A stretch of DNA of 64,000 bases from an uncultured delta proteobacterium (GCA_963745025.1 CAVUWD010000019.1:192001-256000), one strand, 5' to 3'. Positions 55,088-64,000 are shown, counted from the first letter of the stretch. Notes: generated from the letters alone by a model not told the origin. Numbers and translations: made by a program.

Positions 55088-55923
55088 TGGCGGTCTCCGT
55101 CTCGCAGCGCGTGGCCAGCCGCGCATCCGGTCCGTCGTTCGCCGCCCTCACCATGGTGGCGGACCTCGTGCGCCACCGCTCGCTCGTGCTGGCGCTTCTT
55201 GAGCGTGAGCTGAAGGCTCGCTACCGCGGGTCCATCCTCGGCTTCGTCTGGACCTTCCTGAATCCCTTGCTGTTGATGGCGGTCTACGCGCTGGTGTTTC
55301 GCTTCTACATGCGGATCGCGGTGCCGAACTACGCGCTCTTCTTGCTCGCCGGCTTGCTGCCGTGGACGTGGTTCTCGTCTTCGCTCGCCGACGGCACCAA
55401 CGCCATCGTCGGCGGCAGCTCGCTCGTCACCAAATCGTTGTTTCCCACCGAGATCCTGCCGGCCGTGGTCGTGCTCTCCAACATGGTGAACTTCGCCCTG
55501 AGCATCCCGCTCCTCGCCCTCGCCGGCTGGGCGTACGGCGTCCCGTTCAACCCGGTCGCCTGGCTGTGGCTCGTGCCGGTGATGGTACTCCAATGCGTGT
55601 TCACGCTCGGCCTCGTGCTGTCGCTCGCCGCGCTGAACGTGCACTATCGGGATGTGCAGCACGTGGTGGCAAATCTGCTCCTCTTGTGGTTTTTTTTGAC
55701 CCCGATCGTCTACCCCGCCTCGCAAGTTCCCGAGCGGCTGCATCTGCTCCTCTGGGCGAACCCCGTGGCGCTGTTCACCGCAATCTACCGCGACATCTTC
55801 GTCACGCCGGCATGGCCGAACCTCGAAGCCTTCGGCGCGCTGACGATCTACGCACTCGCCTCGATCCTCGTGGGAGCGAAAATCTTCGATGGCTACCGCG
55901 ACACCTTCCCCGAGCTCGTCTGA
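55087..55923 (+). CDS. wzm: Polysaccharide ABC transporter permease (alternative ATG at 55153)
   Basis: RELKARYRGS.LG..W..LNPL, YRDV, TPIVYP, NP. Confidence 0.93.
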   Translation: MAVSVSQRVASRASGPSFAALTMVADLVRHRSLVLALLERELKARYRGSILGFVWTFLNPLLLMAVYALVFRFYMRIAVPNYALFLLAGLLPWTWFSSSLADGTNAIVGGSSLVTKSLFPTEILPAVVVLSNMVNFALSIPLLALAGWAYGVPFNPVAWLWLVPVMVLQCVFTLGLVLSLAALNVHYRDVQHVVANLLLLWFFLTPIVYPASQVPERLHLLLWANPVALFTAIYRDIFVTPAWPNLEAFGALTIYALASILVGAKIFDGYRDTFPELV

Positions 55924-57151
55924 CGCCGCGCCGGCGCTGGCGCGGGCGCGCGGCGCGGCTCCGAGCGGCGTCGCCTCGGCGCCGCAGCCGCCGGCAATCC
56001 GCCTGGCGGGCGTGCGCAAGCGCTTTCGCAAATACACGGTGCGCGGCGGCTACACCACGCTCAAGACCTCGCTCGTGAAGCGCATGTTTCGCGCGAAGTT
56101 CCCGGTCGGCAACTACCTCGACGTGTTGAACGGGATCGATCTGGAGATCCCGGCCGGGCTCACGCTCGGCATCATCGGGCGCAACGGGTCCGGGAAAAGC
56201 ACGCTCCTGAAGATCATGGCGGGGATCATCCGGCCGGATCAGGGCGAGGTCGAGGTGCGGGGGCGGGTGTCCCCGCTGATCGAGCTCGGCGCCGGCTTCC
56301 ATCCGGAGTTTTCGGGACGGGAGAACGTGTATCTCAACGGGTTGGTCATCGGCATGAGCAAGGCCGAGACCGAGGAACGCTACGATTCGATCGTGGAGTT
56401 CGCGGGGCTCGCCGACGTCATCGACGATCCGGTACGCACGTACTCGTCGGGGATGTACATGCGTCTCGCCTTTTCGGTCGCCGTGCATGCCGACCCCGAG
56501 GTGTTGTTGATCGACGAGATCCTCGCGGTCGGCGACGAATCGTTCATCGGCAAGTGCTACGAGCGGATCGCGGCCTTTCAGGAAGCCGGCAAGACGATCG
56601 TCATGGTCTCGCACGGCCTCGAGTCGATCGAGCGGTGGTGTCACGAGGCCATCTGGATCGACGAGGGACGCATCGCCGCACGGGGCTATCCGGCCGAGGT
56701 GGTACGTCTCTACCACGCGGCCATCACGCCGGCACAGAAGGGCCCCCTGCGCGAGCGATCGCTGCGCGACAGCCTGACGCCGGGAAGGCTCGCCGCGACG
56801 ATCCGCGTGGTGGATCCTCCGGTACGCACGTCCGAGCCGTGGCACTACGTGATGCGAGCCCTTCTCGAGGTCGAGAACGTCGGCGACACCGTGTGGCGCG
56901 CTCTGCCGCCCACCCGACGCGGTACCGTCATGGTGGGCGGTCGACTCCACTCGGGCGAGCGTTTTCTCGGCGAGATCCTGCGGGCGCTGATCCCGCGTGA
57001 CGTCTATCCGCGGGAACGCGCCTCTGTGGAGCTCAAGTTCAAGCTGCCTGGGCCCGGACGCTACTTGGTGGACGTCGATCTCGTCGACGAAGGAATCTGC
57101 TGGTTCGTCGAGCACGGGTCGCAGACGCTTCGGCTTGAAATCACGATCTAA
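55889..57151 (+). CDS. wzt: Polysaccharide ABC transporter ATPase with C-terminal Ig-like domain
   Basis: GRNGSGKST, YSSGM, DEILAVGD, VSH; beta-sandwich tail of about 120 aa. Confidence 0.93.
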   Translation: MATATPSPSSSDAAPALARARGAAPSGVASAPQPPAIRLAGVRKRFRKYTVRGGYTTLKTSLVKRMFRAKFPVGNYLDVLNGIDLEIPAGLTLGIIGRNGSGKSTLLKIMAGIIRPDQGEVEVRGRVSPLIELGAGFHPEFSGRENVYLNGLVIGMSKAETEERYDSIVEFAGLADVIDDPVRTYSSGMYMRLAFSVAVHADPEVLLIDEILAVGDESFIGKCYERIAAFQEAGKTIVMVSHGLESIERWCHEAIWIDEGRIAARGYPAEVVRLYHAAITPAQKGPLRERSLRDSLTPGRLAATIRVVDPPVRTSEPWHYVMRALLEVENVGDTVWRALPPTRRGTVMVGGRLHSGERFLGEILRALIPRDVYPRERASVELKFKLPGPGRYLVDVDLVDEGICWFVEHGSQTLRLEITI

Positions 57152-57159
57152 GTGCCGAT

Positions 57160-57429
57160 GTACCCGTTCAGTCTTCGTAGCAACGCCGCGAACTCCGAGG
57201 AGCGCTGGAGTTTCCCGCCGGGCCGTACTCGGCCCGACAGGAAACTCCAGCCACCGCGCGGAGGCGTCCCCTCCTGCGTAGCGCGGAACGCAACAACCCT
57301 CGGCGCTGGTCTATTGCCTTCCGCGCTCCGCGCGGTTGCGGTCGGTCGTGATCGACCCGAGTACGGGCCGATCATGACCGACCGCGCTCTCCGCCTTGCC
57401 GAAGGGTCGTGCGAAAACTGAGGGGGTAC
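57160..57429. mobile_element. Structured multi-hairpin intergenic element, copy 1 (270 bp)
   Basis: Complementary ends, three internal hairpins, homology to 63059-63309, flanking GTGCCGAT / GTGCCGGT. Confidence 0.8.
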
Positions 57430-58458
57430 GTGCCGGTCCGTATCGAAGAGATCATCGAGCGTATCCGACGGGAGATCGCCGACGAGGCAAACGCCGCGCC
57501 GACCGATCGTTCCGCTCCCTCCGACGTCGACCGATTGCCGGCGATCGCCACGCGGCCGGAGCTCGACTACCTGAATCGGAACTGGCACCTCTTCGATCCG
57601 CTCTCGGAGATGCGCTCGCATCGGCGCTGGTTTGGCCCGCTCGTGGTGAGCTTGCGTTGGAAGCTCCGCCGGGTGGTGCTCGGGGTGCTCGATCGCTACT
57701 TCGAGAAGGAGCGGCTGTTTCTGATCGAGCTCGTGCGCTTCAACAATGCGCTCGCCGAGCGCAGCGACCGGCTGCTTCGCGAGGTGACGGAGCGCACGAA
57801 AGCGGTCGCGGAGCGAAACGACCTCTTTCTCGGCGCCCTCGACGTTCGCCTCGAGGCGCTCGAGGCGCGGGAGCAGTTGCGCCGGGTGCTCGTGGATTCG
57901 CCCCGGGGGCTCGCACCGCAGGCCGGCGACGCCGAGGAGTCCGTGCTCGCGGAGATGGCGATCGCGGTCGGCGCCGGTCTCGGGGAGCGCGTCCGGCCGT
58001 TCGGCGACTATCTCCGTTCCCCGGGGTCCGTTCTCTTGCTCGGTTGCGGCGACGGCGAGGTCTTCGAGGCGCTCGACGGAATCGCCGCGACGGGCGTGGA
58101 GGCGAGTGCGTCGCTGGTCGACGAGTGTCGCTCGCGGGGATTCGCGGCCGAGGTCGCGGCGCTGCGCTCCTACCTGGAGGCGGTGCCGGAGGGCTCGCTC
58201 GGGGGTCTGGTGATCACGCGGGTCGTCGATCGCCATCCACTCGCGGCGTGGCCGCGCCTCGTCGCAGCGGCATGGCGGTCGCTGCGGCCCGGGGGAATGG
58301 TCCTGTTCGAGGGGCTCGCGGACGAGGGCGCCGCCGCCCGGCTGCGCTGGCTCGCCGGGCGGCAGCGGTTCACGGTCGTCGATGCCCGCGAGTTCCCCGG
58401 TGATGGACGCGCGCCGCGGGAGCGCGTCCTCGTCTGTCGGCGTGTCGAGGCGACGTGA
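57430..58458 (+). CDS. Coiled-coil plus SAM-methyltransferase-like protein (putative chain terminator)
   Basis: Helical heptad-like N-half; VLLLGCGDGE, LRPGG; directly after wzm-wzt. Confidence 0.7.
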   Translation: MPVRIEEIIERIRREIADEANAAPTDRSAPSDVDRLPAIATRPELDYLNRNWHLFDPLSEMRSHRRWFGPLVVSLRWKLRRVVLGVLDRYFEKERLFLIELVRFNNALAERSDRLLREVTERTKAVAERNDLFLGALDVRLEALEAREQLRRVLVDSPRGLAPQAGDAEESVLAEMAIAVGAGLGERVRPFGDYLRSPGSVLLLGCGDGEVFEALDGIAATGVEASASLVDECRSRGFAAEVAALRSYLEAVPEGSLGGLVITRVVDRHPLAAWPRLVAAAWRSLRPGGMVLFEGLADEGAAARLRWLAGRQRFTVVDAREFPGDGRAPRERVLVCRRVEAT

Positions 58459-60101
58459 GCGCGCAAAGAAGACGGCTCGCCTTCGTCGGCCCGCTTCCGC
58501 CGGTGCGCAGCGGGATTGCCGATTATGCCCGCGACCTGCTGCCCCACCTCGTCGAGGATTTCGAGGTCGAGGTCTTCGTCGACGATCGGCATCCCCTCGT
58601 GGCGGAAGGCGCGTACGGCACACTTCGCCTGCATCCGGGCGCGGAGCTCGGGCGCCGCTTCGCCGACTTCGACTGCGTCGTTTACCAGATGGGCAACAAT
58701 CTCCATCATCGCTTTGTGCTCGAGCTCGCCCGCGAGTTGCCGGGGATCGTCGTTCTGCACGACCTCGTTCTTCATCATCTCTACGAGGAGATCGCCGGCC
58801 TCGAGGACGAGTGGGAGCCTTATGGCGAGGCGCTGCGCGAGGGCTACGGCCCGATCGGTGGCGCGGTCGTGCAATGGAAGCGCTGGCGTCTCGCCTCGGA
58901 GCGCGAGAACTTCGCGTTGCCGCTCTTCGAGCCGATCGGCGCGCGCAGCCGCGGAGTTCTCGTGCACAGCCGCTCGGCCGAAGCCGAGGTGCGCCGTCGC
59001 TTGCCGCAGACGCCGGTCGAGCGGATTCCGATGGGCATCCCGCGCGAGCCGGAGCTCGACCGCGAGGGCGCGCGCCGCCGCCTCGGCGTATCGCCCGAGC
59101 AGGTGTTGATCGGCGCCTTCGGGTTCCTGACGCCGATCAAGCGGCTCGACGTGCTCGCTACGGCGTTGCGCGCCGCCTGGCGGCATTGTCCGGAGCTCCG
59201 GTTGGTCCTCGTCGGTGAGGCCAGCTCCGGTCTTCGATTGGAAGAGATCGTCACGCCGAGCGAGCTCGCCGGCGGTCGCGTCGAGCACCGCGGATACGTG
59301 GCCGCGGACGAGTATCGTGACTGGATGGCGGCGACCGACGTCGCCGTGAACCTGCGGTTTCCGTCCGCCGGCGAGACCTCGGCGAGCCTGCTCCGCCTTC
59401 TCGGCGACGGAAAATGCACGCTGGTCTCGGCCTACCGGCAGTTTCTCGAGATCCCCGCGGAGGCGGCGGTGCGAATTCCGCTCGGTGCGGAGGAGGAGGG
59501 GACGCTCGTGCGCGAGCTCGTCGCGCTCGCTCGCGATCCCCAGCGCCGGATGCGCATCGGACGGGCGGCCCAGGTGTTCGTCGCCGCCGAGCATTCGATG
59601 GAAGCGGCGGCCGGTGGTTTTTGCGCTGCCGTGCAAAGGATCGCGGTGTCGCGACCGTCGCCTCGGCCGCGCCTGCCGATCTGGCGACCCCCAGCGACGA
59701 GCCGCGGCGCGGCGGTTCATGCGACGGTCCGAGCGTCCGAGCCGCCGGCTCTCCGTTCGCAACCGGGCTCGGCCGTCGAGCTCGAGCTGTCGATTCGGAA
59801 CGATGGAGCGTCTCGCTGGATCTCGACGCCGGAGCGGTTCGGGGGGCACGTCGCGATCGCCGCCGACCTGCTCGGGGCGGGGGGCGAGCTCGTCGCGCGG
59901 CTGCGGCCGACCGCTCTGGTGCGGGACTTGGGCCCGGGCGAGGACGAATCCGTGCGGCTTCGCTTCACCGCCCCGCCCGATCGCGGCGAATACCTCGTCC
60001 AGCCGACGATCGTTCACTTCGGCCGCGGCGGGTCTCGGCCGGCCGGGAATCCGATCCCCCTCCTGGTGGCTCCGGACGCCGCCGGATGCTCTCCGCGCTG
60101 A
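58455..60101 (+). CDS. Glycosyltransferase family 4 with C-terminal Ig-like domain
   Basis: PLPPVRSGIADY, YQMGNN, VVLHD, NLRFPSAGETS. Confidence 0.9.
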   Translation: MSAQRRRLAFVGPLPPVRSGIADYARDLLPHLVEDFEVEVFVDDRHPLVAEGAYGTLRLHPGAELGRRFADFDCVVYQMGNNLHHRFVLELARELPGIVVLHDLVLHHLYEEIAGLEDEWEPYGEALREGYGPIGGAVVQWKRWRLASERENFALPLFEPIGARSRGVLVHSRSAEAEVRRRLPQTPVERIPMGIPREPELDREGARRRLGVSPEQVLIGAFGFLTPIKRLDVLATALRAAWRHCPELRLVLVGEASSGLRLEEIVTPSELAGGRVEHRGYVAADEYRDWMAATDVAVNLRFPSAGETSASLLRLLGDGKCTLVSAYRQFLEIPAEAAVRIPLGAEEEGTLVRELVALARDPQRRMRIGRAAQVFVAAEHSMEAAAGGFCAAVQRIAVSRPSPRPRLPIWRPPATSRGAAVHATVRASEPPALRSQPGSAVELELSIRNDGASRWISTPERFGGHVAIAADLLGAGGELVARLRPTALVRDLGPGEDESVRLRFTAPPDRGEYLVQPTIVHFGRGGSRPAGNPIPLLVAPDAAGCSPR

Positions 60102-60310
60102 TTCTCGCCTCGCTCTTTGGCGTGCCCGGTCTGGCGCTGCTGGCGGGCGGCCGCGCGCGCGGAGAAGCACCGCGAGGGATGGAACACGATCGAGCTCGAC
60201 GCCGACGGCTCGACCGGCGGACCGCCCGGCGCCTCGGCGCGCTCCGCGCGGGGCAGGATACCGCATTCTTTCTCTGGCAGGTGAGCGTGACGGCGGCGCA
60301 CGCTCGATGA
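60086..60310 (+). pseudogene. Possible internally deleted membrane-protein remnant
   Basis: Hydrophobic start MLSALILASLFGVPGLALL then a short beta-like tail (GWNTIEL in an alternate frame). Confidence 0.3.
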
Positions 60311-60317
60311 TCCCCTG

Positions 60318-61837
60318 TTGACGCAGAGCGGCCCGCCGATTACTGCCGCGGCTGTGCCGCAGAGCGATCCGAGAAACCACTTGCTGTGGCCGCTTCTTGC
60401 GAAGAACCTGGTGCGCGGCAGGGCCGAAGAGACCGCGCTGGCGGCGGGCGAGCGCGCGATCTCGTACGGCGAGCTCGCCGCCGCAGTCCGGCGCGGCGGC
60501 GACGAGATCGACGCGCAGTTCGCAGCGGGTGCACGGGTACTGGTCGCCGCTCGCAATCAGCTTCACGTCGGCGTCGCACTGCTCGCGGCGCTCCAGTCGC
60601 GCGCGACTCCGTTGCTCGCGGACCCGACGTCGGTCGAACGGCTGCGTGGGATCGCTCGCGAGTGGCGACTTTCCGGAGCGATCGGCGAAAGTGAGGTCTT
60701 AGAAGCGACTGGCTTGCCGATCATCGGAACGTCGCGCATCGAATCCTGGCTCGGGGCGGCGCACGGCTCGCCACCAGACCTTCTCCCCCCTGCGGTCGCC
60801 GGCGGCGAGCCCAGTTTCTGGACGTTCACCTCGGGAACGATGGGAGAGCCCAAGGCCGTCGTCCATTCGCATCGCGGGCCGTCGGCCGCTTACGCGGCAT
60901 TCGCTAGCGGGGTCGTCCATCTCGGACCCGAGGATGTGACGATCGCGACTGCGGGGCTGCCGTTCGTCTATGCGCTCGGCAACAACTTCTTCTTCCCGCT
61001 GATGGCGGGCGGCACGGCGGTACTTCCATCGGACCTCCTGCTGCCCACGGTTCTCGGCGAGCTCGCGCGCCATGGTGCCAGCGTGCTCGTCGCCGGCCCG
61101 TGGTCGCTGTCGGGCATCGTGCGCCTGGTGCGGCGTGCGCGGTGGGTCGAGGCGATCCGCCGGTTGCGCTGCGTGCTGTCCGCCGGGGAACCGCTGCCGG
61201 AGCGCGTGTTTCTCGAATGGAGGAAGCGATTCGGCAAGGAAGTGCTCGACAACCTCGGCTGCACGGAGATGTTCAACTCGTTCGTGAGCAACACGATGGG
61301 ACGGGCACGGCCGGGATCGCTCGGGGAAGGGGTCCCCGGCTTCGAGATTCAAGTGGGCGGCGAGCCACCCCTGTCGGGCGCGAAGGGCGAGCTTCGCGTG
61401 CGCGGCGACAGCCGCGCGATCGCCGTCGGCCGCGCGGGGAAGCTGGATCCACCCGAGGGCGAGTGGTGCGATACCGGCGACGAGGTGGAAGTCCGCGACG
61501 ATGGAACGCTCGCGTTCCTGGGTCGTCGGGACGACCGTTTCAAGGTGAAGGGGCAATTCCTTCATCCCGTCGAGGTCGAGCGTTCGCTCGCCGAGGTGCC
61601 GGGCGTCGCGGAGTGCCTCGTCGTGGCCGAGCCCGACGCGGACGGCCTGGCCGTGGTCGTTGCCAAGGTCGTCGCCCACGAAGAAGTCACGGGAGGAAGA
61701 GCTGGTGTGCCGCCTGCTCCGGCATGCGCGTGCCCGGCTCCGAGCCGTTCGCGGTGCCGGAGCGCATCGACGTCGTCGAATCGTTGCCGAGGAGCGAGCG
61801 CGGCAAGCTCGTCCGCCGTGCGGCGGTCGACGGCTGA
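60318..61837 (+). CDS. Benzoate-CoA-ligase-like adenylate-forming enzyme, frameshift near 61690
   Basis: FTSGTMGEPKAVVH, YALGN, SAGEPLP, GCTEM, TGD, GRRDDRFKV, LPRSERGK. Confidence 0.85.
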
Positions 61838-62202
61838 GCCCGGGGCCTGCTCGTGATGCGAGGCATGGCCAGCGGGCAGCCGGCATTGTCTTTGCCGCCA
61901 CTCTTCTCTGGTCCGCGCTCGCTCGCGCGGCTGGAGCGTACTGGGGCGACGGAAGCGGGAACGGCGGGCTGGCCGGCCCTGAGCGCTCCCCCATCGTTTG
62001 TCTTGGACCGACAACCAGCTGTTCGGCTCGTTCCGCGGCGCCCGTCATGGACCCCATTCTACGGTGGCCCACGCCGCTCGACCTCGCTGATGACGCTGTG
62101 AACGGGCGCCGCGGGACGGAGGATTGCCGCGCTCCGAGAATGAGCATCGACCCCGCGCCCGGCTCTTTACTTGACGGGCCCGCACCGATATCTCCGGCGC
62201 CA

Positions 62203-62883
62203 ATGAAAATCTCCGTGGTCATCCCGGTCTTCAACGAGCGAGACACGATCGCCGAGATCCTGTCTCGAGTCCGCCGCGCCCTCGACGGAAAAGACTCGGA
62301 GCTCGTCGTCGTCGACGACGGCTCGACCGACGGGACGCGCGAAGCGCTCCGCTCGATTGCGGGAATCCGGCTGATCGAGCACGAGCAGAACCAGGGTAAA
62401 GGAGCGGCGTTGCGCACCGGTTTCGCCGCGGCCAACGGCGACGTCGTGATCGTCCAGGACGCCGACCTCGAATACGACCCGCGGGACTATCCGAAGCTCC
62501 TCGAGCCCATCGAAGACGGCCGCGCCGACGTCGTATTCGGCTCGCGCTTTCTCGGCGGCCCGCACCGGGTGCTCTTCTTCTGGCACTACTTGGCGAACAA
62601 GCTGCTCACCTGGCTGTCGAACGTGTTCACGAACCTGAACCTCTCCGACATGGAGACGGGGTACAAGGTCTTTCGCCGCCCGGTGCTCGAGCGTATCCAC
62701 ATCCGCTCCGACCGCTTCAATTTCGAGCCGGAGATCACGGCGAAGGTGGCCAAGACGCGTTGCCGCGTCTACGAGGTGCCGATCTCGTACAGCGGTCGCA
62801 CCTACGACGAGGGCAAGAAGATCGGCTGGCGCGATGGTCTCTCCGCGCTGTGGACGATCATCAAGTTCCGATTCGTGGATTGA
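62203..62883 (+). CDS. Glycosyltransferase family 2 (polyprenol-phosphate sugar synthase-like)
   Basis: IPVFNE, VDDGSTDGT, QDADLEYDP, DMETGYK, EGKKIGW. Confidence 0.93.
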   Translation: MKISVVIPVFNERDTIAEILSRVRRALDGKDSELVVVDDGSTDGTREALRSIAGIRLIEHEQNQGKGAALRTGFAAANGDVVIVQDADLEYDPRDYPKLLEPIEDGRADVVFGSRFLGGPHRVLFFWHYLANKLLTWLSNVFTNLNLSDMETGYKVFRRPVLERIHIRSDRFNFEPEITAKVAKTRCRVYEVPISYSGRTYDEGKKIGWRDGLSALWTIIKFRFVD

Positions 62884-63058
62884 GATAGGGCTCGAGCGCG
62901 GCTTGCCAAGGTCTCATGTCGTCGAGACCGAGATGCTCGAGGTGCCGGCGGGCGCCCACCCGAGCTGGCCGCGCGCGCCGGTGGTCATGATCGGCCCCAC
63001 GCGACGAGCCTTAGCGGAACGCCGGCAATCGATGCTACAGGAAGCGTCGTTTGAAGAT

Positions 63059-63309
63059 AATGCCTCAGTCTTTGCCTCCGGCGCTCGAGATCGCGAAGCG
63101 CTGGATTTTCCGGTCGGCCCGTACTCGGGTCGACCGGAAAATCCAGCGACCGCGCGCTAGCGCGGAAGGCAATCGACCAACTCGCGGGTTATTGCCTTCC
63201 GCGCTTCGCGCGGTTGCGGTTGGTTGTGATCGACCCGAGTACGGGCCGATCACAACCAACCGCGCTCTCAGGTTCCGAAGCGCTTGAGGCGAAGACCGAG
63301 GCGCTCCCT
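63059..63309. mobile_element. Structured multi-hairpin intergenic element, copy 2 (251 bp)
   Basis: Complementary ends, same hairpins as copy 1, flanked by perfect TTTGAAGAT repeats. Confidence 0.8.
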
Positions 63310-63310
63310 T

Positions 63311-64000
63311 TTGAAGATCCTCCACGTCGATCCCGAGACCTCCTTTGGCGGCGGGGAGCGCCAAGTCGCGGGATTGATCCGCCATCTTGCGAAGCGCGGT
63401 CACGAGAGCATTCTCGCCGCCCCCGCCGAGTCGCGGCTCGCCGCGATCGTTCCCGCTGCGGATGCGCGTCTGCGGCCGCTCGCGATTCGGAGCGACATCG
63501 ATCTGGTCGCGGCTCTCCGGCTGCGGCGGCTGGCTGCGGTCGAGAGCCCGCACATCGTTCATTTCCACACGTCTCGGGCGCACGCGATGAGCCCCTGGCT
63601 TCGGCGGTATGCCGGGCGAGCGATCGTGACTCGGCGCATGGATTATCCGCTCCACCCGGGGCCCTGGACGAACCTTCTCTACAACCGGTCGGTCGCGGCC
63701 GTGGTTGCGATCTCCGAAGAGGTGCGCCGCCGCCTGCTCGCTGCCGGAGTGCGCTCGGAGCGCGTTCGCGTCATCCACAGCGCGGTCGAGCCACCGGCAG
63801 GTTTGCCCGGCCGCGCGGGCCGTGCGGCCGCCCGCAAGCGCTTCGGCATCGACGACGAGCTGGCGATCGGCGTCGTCGCGGCGCTCGAACGACGCAAGGG
63901 ACACGACGTGCTCTTCCGTGCCCTCGCGCGCCTCGCGCCAGCGGGCGGGCTGCGGTTTTGCTGCGTGGTCTGCGGTGCTGGCTCGGAGCGGGCGGCCCTG
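63311..64000 (+). CDS. Glycosyltransferase family 4, runs off the window
   Basis: TTG start; MKILHVD...GGGERQ, HIVHFH, VAIS, ALERRKGH. Confidence 0.9.
   Translation, partial: MKILHVDPETSFGGGERQVAGLIRHLAKRGHESILAAPAESRLAAIVPAADARLRPLAIRSDIDLVAALRLRRLAAVESPHIVHFHTSRAHAMSPWLRRYAGRAIVTRRMDYPLHPGPWTNLLYNRSVAAVVAISEEVRRRLLAAGVRSERVRVIHSAVEPPAGLPGRAGRAAARKRFGIDDELAIGVVAALERRKGHDVLFRALARLAPAGGLRFCCVVCGAGSERAAL

Follow-up and report, generated by a model that had tools for sequence, protein, structure and literature searches.

The two inserts located at start codons in the window (the whole 64,000-nucleotide stretch of DNA that was analysed) are copies of a non-coding MITE family with IS66-type ends, which is a known kind of element. 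The family is very probably moved in trans, and its occurrence at start codons would reflect the insertions that survived rather than any targeting of such sites. The inserts, their flanking repeats and the neighbouring genes are as follows.

55889-57151, + strand: Wzt-like ABC-transporter ATPase gene, 420 aa (PF00005, 74.5 bits), upstream of copy 1
57152-57159, + strand: left target-site duplication of copy 1 (GTGCCGAT), holding the duplicated GTG
57160-57429, + strand: MITE copy 1, 270 bp, a divergent member scoring 199.7 bits (E 9e-59) with the family profile
57160-57179, + strand: left terminal inverted repeat of copy 1 (GTACCCGTTCAGTCTTCG...)
57410-57429, + strand: right terminal inverted repeat of copy 1 (...GCGAAAACTGAGGGGGTAC), bearing an SD-like motif of the GAGG type right before GTG 57430
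57430-57437, + strand: right target-site duplication of copy 1 (GTGCCGGT), which keeps the original bases, also present in genomes G001 and G007
57430-58458, + strand: class I SAM-dependent methyltransferase-like protein, 342 aa (PF08241, 27.4 bits), start GTG 57430-57432
62203-62883, + strand: GT2-family glycosyltransferase gene (PF00535, 140.7 bits), upstream of copy 2
63050-63058, + strand: left target-site duplication of copy 2 (TTTGAAGAT), with TTG at 63051
63059-63309, + strand: MITE copy 2, 251 bp, near the family consensus (254 bits against the family profile)
63310-63318, + strand: right target-site duplication of copy 2 (TTTGAAGAT), TTG 63311-63313 being the start of the GT4 gene
63311-64000, + strand: GT4-family glycosyltransferase gene (PF13439, 66.8 bits), continuing past the window end

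The preliminary description had placed two inserts here within duplications that contain start codons, and both the inserts and the duplicated GTG and TTG could be found. The TAA stop of wzt (57149-57151) directly adjoined the duplicated GTG of copy 1. Copy 2 was flanked on both sides by a perfect TTTGAAGAT repeat, with a spacer of 166 nt between the GT2 gene and the left duplication. Comparison with relatives revealed GTG at the homologous position of the methyltransferase in all four relatives having the gene, and the start of the glycosyltransferase (MKILHVD) was TTG in five and ATG in one of the six relatives. Judged by these homologues, the start codons inside the flanking duplications are real and conserved.

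A blastn search of the genome revealed 86 merged loci, and an nhmmer profile search of the 5.65-Mb genome, a draft that is 92.65% complete, recovered 101 merged loci, of which 32 were full length (234-279 bp). The element is about 240-270 bp long, with terminal inverted repeats of about 20 bp and an internally palindromic, hairpin-rich core, and copies 1 and 2 could be aligned with each other. The terminal inverted repeat consensus over the 102 recognised ends was GTAATGCCTCAGTCTTCGCC, positions 7-15 of which are conserved partly by construction because the same positions served to pick the ends. Among the 50 long copies from a motif-independent profile search, 28 still had both end motifs, and the 14-mer end motif (at most 4 substitutions) was present at 36/50 left ends and 34/50 right ends. 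The two ends of one copy were no more alike than the ends of different copies (0.52 vs 0.475 for tip positions 1-6 and 0.79 vs 0.755 for the end core). The earlier impression of ends that vary from copy to copy, in contrast to the sequence-conserved ends of transposons, was not confirmed.

Exact flanking repeats of at least 8 nt were present in 17 of the 32 full copies compared to 0.56% of permuted flank pairs, and the mean longest flanking repeat was 7.03 compared to 4.13 in the permuted pairs. Clean target duplications were 8-9 bp long, while some repeats could be read as 9-12 nt; the remaining 15 full copies lacked an exact repeat of this length, some having imperfect repeats and a few none. 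With respect to coding capacity, no reading frame was stop-free in more than 14 of the 32 full copies, and the forward frames were stop-free in 2-6 of them. Copies occurred in both orientations, beside starts and beside stops.

Filled and empty sites could both be observed. Sister genome G001 lacked copy 2 and had one TTTGAAGAT exactly where the element would sit, and contigs from two metagenomes (X1 and X3), likewise empty at this site, joined position 63049 to 63310, with 9 letters fitting both sides. A contig from metagenome X4 spanned the filled right junction of copy 2, and the junctions of copy 1 were spanned by contigs in 4/4 metagenome runs. At the junction of wzt and GTG that holds copy 1, G001 carries a MITE of another family, which duplicates TAA and supplies GGGAG. 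With this insert removed, G001 reads TAAGTGCCGGTCCG at the wzt/methyltransferase junction, in agreement with the earlier proposal that excision of copy 1 restores the wzt-TAA-GTG adjacency. The empty alleles point to mobility of the MITE and, together with the exact repeats in 17/32 full copies, bear out the first view of a mobile element that duplicates its target without a fixed target sequence. The family combines small dispersed copies, absence of coding capacity, conserved inverted repeats, target duplication, ends shared with an IS and presence/absence polymorphism, as is usual for a MITE.

A candidate partner IS of 1882 bp was present in three copies with 99.9-100% identity, one of them on the contig of the window, some 110 kb upstream of it. 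The earlier statement that no mobilising enzyme is present is true of the window but not of the contig, which carries an IS66-type transposase outside it. The ORF of this IS matched DDE_Tnp_IS66 (PF03050, 131.3 bits) and zf-IS66 (PF13005, 29.4 bits). It is a single ORF of 468-490 aa, with no tnpA/tnpB, as judged by a Pfam scan of this main ORF, beside which the IS has short overlapping ORFs; the 490-aa frame was intact in the three copies, and approximately 400-790 nt precede the ORF, depending on the start chosen. The IS ends begin GTAAGGCCTCAGTCTCCG... and read GTAAGG...CCTTAC, and its insertions made 8-bp duplications (AACGATCG and CTTCTGGA). In ISfinder, IS66/ISBst12 ends begin 5'-GTAA and are accompanied by 8-bp direct repeats. 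By its single DDE_Tnp_IS66 ORF, GTAA ends and 8-bp duplications, the partner is an ISBst12-like member of the IS66 family. Inverted repeats beginning GTAA are also quoted for the IS66 family in a part of the literature (PMC12888890). ISDge4 of Deinococcus geothermalis, which belongs to the ISBst12 group, resembles the partner IS in the passages describing it, with one DDE_Tnp_IS66 ORF (a 449-aa transposase), GTAA ends (GTAACTGCTCAGCA) and an 8-bp direct repeat (PMC12898284). In our own comparison, the ISDge4 end matched the end found here, GTAAGGCCTCAGTC, at 9/14 positions. The window element differs from ISDge4 and IS66 in that it has no transposase and has only about 15 terminal bases in common with the partner IS.

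Comparison of the MITE consensus with the IS ends (GTAAGGCCTCAGTCT) revealed 14/15 identical terminal bases at both ends and no match inside the IS; the two differ at position 5 and past position 15. Exact GCCTCAGTCT occurred at 41 sites in the genome, 32 of which were in MITE loci, while six terminate the three IS copies. The preliminary description had regarded a match with known IS-family ends as evidence against its own reading, and such a match is provided by the IS66-family ends. Most likely, the 1882-bp IS supplies the DDE transposase that moves the MITE in trans. The same MITE could instead be moved by another IS66-family element with exact GTAATGCC ends, now unassembled or lost, in which case the 1882-bp IS would be a cousin. 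The end differences given above are in line with such a mover, as is G001, which holds MITE copies without the 1882-bp IS; the one IS66-family transposase recovered from that assembly, which is 82% complete, is 32% identical and belongs to an element with different ends. Draft genomes, moreover, often leave repeats unassembled. A second mover is nevertheless unlikely, since the MITE loci and the 1882-bp IS explain 38 of the 41 exact GCCTCAGTCT sites and no further element carrying the motif could be seen in the assembly.

Analysis of insertion positions revealed no genome-wide start-codon bias in the MITE family, and start-codon targeting is not supported. Of 57 start-facing tips, five were at 0-5 nt, one at 11 nt and 50 at least 32 nt from the predicted start, none being at 12-31 nt, while the remaining tip, at -52 nt, belonged to a gene call overlapping the element. 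These positions depend on genome-wide starts from a home-made gene caller, homologue-checked at the two window sites only, which rewards upstream GAGG and could inflate the start-adjacent count as easily as reflect biology. Another 45 tips faced stop codons. Under a null of uniform gene-sparing insertion (2.74-3.6% per insertion), 2.1-3.7 tips were expected at 0-5 nt, and the probability of at least five was P = 0.06-0.30, the value of 0.06 being that of the most lenient null; the five start-adjacent tips are on the high side of expectation. When full copies alone were considered, 3/32 were start-adjacent (P = 0.057). Three of the five start-adjacent copies were at stop/start junctions with a zero-, one- or overlapping-nucleotide spacer (TAA/GTG, TGA-C-GTG and TAGTG).

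A new class of element, moving as ssDNA or RNA, recognised through structure rather than sequence and aimed at translation-initiation sites, as was first proposed, could draw on the very stable predicted fold of copy 1 (-170.6 kcal/mol, z = -9.1; 0/200 shuffles as stable) and on the start codons occupied by both window copies. It is highly improbable, however, because the conserved inverted-repeat ends are common to an IS with a DDE transposase, the duplications have a near-fixed length of 8-9 bp as in DDE transposons, and the two ends of one copy have no special likeness. In addition, 52 of the 57 start-facing tips were outside 0-5 nt of a predicted start, 45 more tips face stops, and the data can be explained without a reverse transcriptase, HUH or IS110 enzyme. 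The proposed targeting of initiation sites is not upheld by the tip counts. It is scarcely credible, too, that the repeats are a functional structured RNA, such as a regulatory or ncRNA gene family, and not a transposon. The strong fold and the location inside operons, where co-transcription is a must, would suit such an RNA, but the copies are in both orientations and adjoin starts as well as stops, and target duplications and empty alleles exist. An Rfam search, which the preliminary description had suggested, was run on the window using Rfam 15; it gave 0 matches at gathering score, and the 14 sub-threshold matches were all far below their cut-offs (the best at 22.6 bits against a cut-off of 268).

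For a MITE moved in trans, the events at the window sites may be pictured as follows. An IS66-family DDE transposase of the ISBst12 type, encoded by a single ORF, would move the transposase-less MITE, whose ends mimic those of the IS, and its staggered cut would produce an 8-bp, sometimes 9-bp, target duplication. At a tight junction, insertion would be harmless only if the duplicated 8-9 bp include the start codon and, where a stop codon adjoins it, that stop codon too, in which case the upstream gene would retain its stop and the downstream gene its start. GAGG sits 6 nt from the inverted-repeat tip in the MITE consensus and likewise in the IS; facing outward, it could substitute for the displaced ribosome-binding site. 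The right end of copy 1 does provide an SD-like GAGG, as had been pointed out, and the GAGG of the inverted repeat can presumably act as a ribosome-binding site. Selection would be the filter behind the start-codon position of the two window copies, which are probably found there because only tolerated insertions survive.

A gene-sparing adaptation has also been considered, in which the inverted repeat evolved an outward ribosome-binding site, polarity is avoided through translation that the duplicated start carries across the element, and starts and junctions are preferentially colonised. The spacing of GAGG in the consensus and in the IS, and the five tips at 0-5 nt with none at 12-31 nt, are consistent with this, as are three of the four examined ORFs opened by duplicated starts, which cross the element and stop, relative to the first base of the real start codon, between 26 nt ahead of it and 1 nt past it. 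The duplicated GTG of copy 1 opens a read-through ORF of 89 codons (57152-57421), and the duplicated TTG of copy 2 (63051) opens one of 78 codons (63051-63287). Such an adaptation is decidedly unlikely, however, as the enrichment falls short of significance (P = 0.06-0.30), this GC-rich element commonly has open frames (one of them being stop-free in 14/32 copies) and the fourth examined ORF ends after 37 codons. Furthermore, GAGG belongs to the transposase-binding end common to the IS, so a separate adaptive explanation is unnecessary. It is unlikely that the MITE family is pre-equipped for harmless insertion at starts and tight junctions by the combination of codon-preserving duplication, spaced GAGG and read-through from the left duplicated start. 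In that event, the left duplicated start would carry ribosomes through the folded 250-nt insert, so that translational coupling would be kept and polarity avoided; MITEs of this type would be privileged in reaching the interior of operons and could rewire the coupling between adjacent genes.

The ERIC and Correia elements are small interspersed repeats whose RNA is predicted to be strongly structured. REP units are palindromic, intergenic sequences of 20-40 nt without target duplications, associated with a RAYT (HUH) gene. The present elements resemble REP/BIME in being repeated, palindromic and intergenic but differ by their 240 bp, inverted-repeat ends, 8-bp duplications and IS66-type partner; the 240-bp size and the 8-9-bp duplications do not fit the REP/BIME-RAYT group. 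The pneumococcal BOX, RUP and SPRITE repeats are likewise small, interspersed, strongly structured as predicted RNA and co-transcribed with their neighbours, and where they lie with respect to genes is ascribed to selection on tolerated sites, whereas their hosts, sequences and partner IS families are different (PMC3049150). In the passages of that paper bearing on these repeats, no discussion of start-codon duplication was found, and the literature searched contained no description of a MITE with IS66 or ISBst12-type ends. A close parallel is MITEPsy1 of Pseudomonas syringae, described in part of PMC3189936 as short, non-coding, dispersed in several copies and presumably mobilised in trans, with inverted repeats that are almost the same as those of an IS resident in the genome and a duplication length typical for that IS. 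Transposition of MITEPsy1 was experimentally shown (PMC3189936), whereas the mobility of the present family is read from empty alleles. MITEPsy1 is IS5-like and 100 nt long and duplicates 4 nt of its target, CTAG or YTAA (PMC3189936), in contrast to the approximately 240 bp, IS66-type GTAA ends, 8-9-bp duplications and lack of a fixed target observed in the present family.

The two structured inserts in the window belonged to a real, well-delimited and ordinary MITE family, a MITE being a small non-coding element moved in trans, and their mechanism is not new. The sequence agreed with the preliminary description as regards the extent of both inserts and their flanking repeats.

Inserts in the window and the genes next to them
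57149-57151, TAA stop of a Wzt-like ABC-ATPase gene (PF00005, 74.5 bits), upstream of copy 1 and followed directly by GTGCCGAT
57160-57429, MITE copy 1, between GTGCCGAT (57152-57159) and GTGCCGGT (57430-57437)
downstream of copy 1, methyltransferase-like gene (PF08241), opened by GTGCCGGT
63059-63309, MITE copy 2, between perfect TTTGAAGAT repeats (63050-63058 and 63310-63318)
63311, TTG start of a GT4 glycosyltransferase gene (PF13439, 66.8 bits)

The two copies could be aligned along their entire length. The predicted fold of copy 1 reached -170.6 kcal/mol (z = -9.1), a value equalled by none of 200 shuffles; the strong fold was due to the inverted ends together with two internal hairpins of approximately 48 nt, which were mutual reverse complements. 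No Rfam match was obtained over the whole 64-kb window at the gathering score, and the 14 matches from a permissive scan of 57000-57600 were all far below threshold and were read as noise. Comparison with relatives revealed that both starts were genuine: the GT4 gene began with TTG in five of six relatives and with ATG in the sixth (MKILHVD), while the methyltransferase gene began with GTG in all four relatives holding it, with upstream sequence that varied between them. In all four metagenome runs, the summed contig depth at 62113-62574 was many-fold higher than elsewhere in the window, and numerous contigs ended loosely there; a conserved GT2 domain that draws in contigs of other organisms is the probable cause.

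The genome carrying the window consisted of 5.65 Mb in 20 contigs, with 92.65% completeness and 66% G+C content. Copy 1 alone gave 84 matches in this genome when both strands were counted, and blastn with both copies gave 86 merged loci. An nhmmer profile of 254 positions, built from 28 copies showing both end motifs, produced 208 hits that merged into 101 loci, 32 of them full length (covering profile positions ≤8 to ≥246). Each locus also scored on the opposite strand because the internal hairpins are reverse-complementary. The family, at about 100 loci, made up roughly 0.4% of the genome. Its left end was GT(A/G)ATGCCTCAGTCTTCGCC and its right end GGCGAAGACTGAGGCGTTAC, the latter being extended in one sub-family. 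The consensus over 102 recognised ends was GTAATGCCTCAGTCTTCGCC, in which positions 7-15 are partly conserved by construction, since the ends were chosen by a 9-mer with two mismatches allowed. The ends had been described as differing between copies and lacking sequence conservation; they were found to be conserved, and the very strings reported already share TCAGTCTT. Among 21 copies, the two ends of the same copy were 0.52 identical at the tip (the outermost end of the terminal inverted repeat) and 0.79 in the core, against 0.475 and 0.755 for ends of different copies. Same-copy ends were therefore no more alike than different-copy ends, so nothing indicated that pairing is maintained in place of sequence, and covariation preserving structure across the ends of individual copies was rejected. 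A conserved ORF within the element was likewise rejected, as no frame was free of stops in more than 14 of the 32 full copies.

Analysis of the borders revealed an exact direct repeat of at least 8 nt in 17 of the 32 full copies, compared to 0.56% of permuted left/right flank pairs, and the mean longest flank repeat was 7.03 nt against 4.13 nt upon permutation. Where the ends were canonical (GTAA...TTAC), an 8-bp repeat abutted the element, such as GGCGGGAG, CTTCTCGA, CGCGCGCG or GATCGTCC. Several flank repeats were 9 bp long and a few were 10-12 bp, while in the remaining 15 full copies they were imperfect or absent; that of copy 1 was imperfect, with 7/8 positions matching. The family showed all the testable features by which bacterial MITEs are defined. 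At one copy (C20:81141-81390, on another contig of the genome), 18 nt of the right flank matched, at all but two positions, the left flank joined to the left end of the element, so the target there resembled the element's own end.

Since the GTAA ends and the duplications of 8 bp were reminiscent of the IS66 family, the genome was searched for PF03050. Four matches were obtained, three of which were identical 490-aa open frames (133.2 bits), each within an IS of 1882 bp.

Copies of the 1882-bp IS
C19:80230-82111, on the window's own contig, approximately 110 kb upstream of the window
C6:484414-486295 and C6:486304-488185, a head-to-tail pair on another contig

These three copies were 99.9-100% identical to one another, with the ends GTAAGGCCTCAGTCTCCGTAGGGG... 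and ...GGAGACTGAGGCCTTAC and flanking 8-bp repeats AACGATCG and CTTCTGGA. The pair was separated solely by the 8 bp CTTCTGGA, which recurred after the second copy. The ORF contained a DDE_Tnp_IS66 domain (131.3 bits) and a zf-IS66 domain (29.4 bits), and nothing further. On C19 the transposase, of 468-490 aa, is encoded at 80635-82038. The description of ISDge4, of the ISBst12 group, gives ends GTAACTGCTCAGCA, a 449-aa protein and an 8-bp repeat (PMC12898284), and GTAA-initial ends are among those quoted for the IS66 family (PMC12888890). In size and in its single ORF the 1882-bp IS resembled the ISBst12 group as set out for ISDge4, and it showed the testable defining features of an ISBst12-type IS66-family IS.

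The MITE consensus and the IS were identical at 14/15 terminal bases at both ends, and no internal similarity was found between them past those 15 bases. Exact GCCTCAGTCT sites numbered 41 in the genome, of which 32 lay in MITE loci, six were the six IS ends and three lay elsewhere. The preliminary description, which proposed a start-codon-targeting element moving as ssDNA or RNA, had named a match to the ends of a known IS family as an observation that would speak against it, and such a match is given by these terminal bases and by 38/41 GCCTCAGTCT sites. It had correctly noted that the window holds no mobilising enzyme; the candidate sits on the same contig. Judged from the sequence, the transposase of the 1882-bp IS would be the enzyme that moves the MITE in trans. 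A closer, unassembled partner is a possible alternative, in that the sister genome of the same genus (G001) also holds the MITE and the IS66-type element found there has other ends. That element was present in three copies (G001 C27:14668-17107, C27:438610-441049 and C13; L066, L067, L059); it measured 2432 bp, had GTAACCGTTCAC ends, was flanked by an 8-bp duplication (GAATGAAA) and encoded a transposase of 478 aa. With this length, these ends and a protein only 32% identical to the transposase of the window's genome, it was itself rejected as the partner. The literature searched contained no account of the family, of a MITE with IS66/ISBst12-type ends, or of a MITE duplication over a start codon. 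A MITE family with such ends deserves an entry in an IS database, and in annotation both the family and its IS66-type candidate partner merit masking or labelling in this uncultured lineage.

Empty alleles in relatives could be found for copy 2. In the sister genome the left flank, a single TTTGAAGAT and the right flank were contiguous, and contigs from two public metagenome runs (X3 and X1) joined 63049 to 63310, skipping 260 letters, with nine letters fitting both sides. The X3 contig was 1516 nt long with a shorter side of 255 letters, and the shorter side of the X1 contig was 25 letters. A contig from a third run (X4, 63255-63407) spanned the filled right junction; copy 2 is therefore polymorphic among close relatives. 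The left junction of copy 1 was bridged in X1, X3 and X4 and its right junction in X1 and X2, the X3 version lacking 18 nt at 57258 and being nearer to the family's usual length. The bridged junctions, imperfect duplication and divergent sequence suggest that copy 1 is an older insertion. Of the 41 genomes searched, only the window's genome, the sister genome and, weakly, one other (G005) were hit by the MITE portion of the queries. An exact scan of 185,579 species genomes with the 24-nt core returned three stretches, all in one MAG (uncultured delta proteobacterium).

Start-codon targeting was evaluated with a custom gene caller that scored codon log-odds and the type of start codon and gave a bonus for an SD; the 5471 genes it called occupied 82.8% of the genome. 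In three of the 32 full copies, namely the two window copies and C18:2191-2464, an end was no further than 8 nt from a predicted start; the caller's SD bonus gives an advantage to starts that closely follow the inverted-repeat GAGG, and starts were checked against homologues at the two window sites only. The 102 recognised tips came from 77 of the 101 loci; 57 faced a gene start and 45 a stop, and 14 of the latter were no more than 11 nt from the stop codon. Start-facing tips lay at -52, 0, 1, 3, 4, 5 and 11 nt, with none at 12-31 nt and the rest at 32-1289 nt. Under a null of uniform insertion over all 8-nt windows sparing both neighbouring genes, 2.74% of windows held a start codon, or 3.6% when the 45 nt upstream of starts were also barred. 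The targeting proposed in the preliminary description was not demonstrated genome-wide, as five tips were observed at 0-5 nt from a start against 2.1-3.7 expected (P(≥5) = 0.06-0.30); for the full copies alone (n = 32), P(≥3) was 0.057. The distances were bimodal, with 5/57 at 0-5 nt and 15/57 clustered 53-63 nt upstream of predicted starts. Spacers of this cluster differed in sequence, many bearing -35-like and -10-like hexamers. The 12-31-nt gap and the 53-63-nt cluster would fit exclusion of the MITE from promoter and leader regions; the cluster may lie where short promoters begin on their upstream side, or the gene caller may have produced it artificially.

The start codon lay inside the duplication in four of the five start-adjacent copies, three of which occupied junctions without spare room.

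Tight junctions occupied by the MITE
copy 1, TAA|GTG
C11:88057, TGA-C-GTG, duplication CGTGAC[G/C]C
C2:29054, TAGTG with stop and start overlapping, duplication about CTAGTGCG

Such a junction could take up a 250-bp insert with both genes whole only if a staggered cut of 8 bp spanned the start codon. The outward end of the MITE, ...CTGAGGCGTTAC, sets GAGG 6 nt from the tip, a spacing that may be workable for a start codon early in the duplication. We infer that the location of the start-adjacent copies reflects a filter of tolerated sites, a reading supported by an unrelated MITE at the same wzt|GTG junction in the sister genome. This 191-bp element (L036:2025-2215; G001:C9:69640-69830, minus strand) had 22-nt inverted ends (GTGCTC[A/C]CTTTCGGAAATACGG), duplicated TAA or CTAA, and terminated in GGGAGCAC just before TAAGTG, with GGGAG close ahead of the GTG; it was present at 16 places in the sister genome and at none in the window's genome. 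A distribution shaped by tolerated sites and strong folding upon co-transcription are well documented for MITEs (PMC3049150, PMC3189936). The window copies offer a clean natural case in which target duplication lets a transposon occupy a start codon or a zero-spacer stop/start junction while both genes stay intact.

The left duplicated starts also opened reading frames through the elements. In copy 1 the duplicated GTG headed an 89-codon ORF (57152-57421) with its stop 11 nt before the real GTG, and in copy 2 the duplicated start headed a 78-codon ORF (63051-63287) ending 26 nt before the TTG. A 94-codon ORF whose stop overlapped the real GTG was seen at C11:88057, and the one at C2:29054 was merely 37 codons long. 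On the boldest reading, such read-through could prevent ribosomes from leaving the transcript and so maintain coupled translation; three cases out of four were not taken as evidence, because one frame is open in 14/32 copies anyway. The ORFs at 57152-57421 and 63051-63287 are likely to be mis-annotated, and such spurious frames of 78-89 codons should not be called genes.
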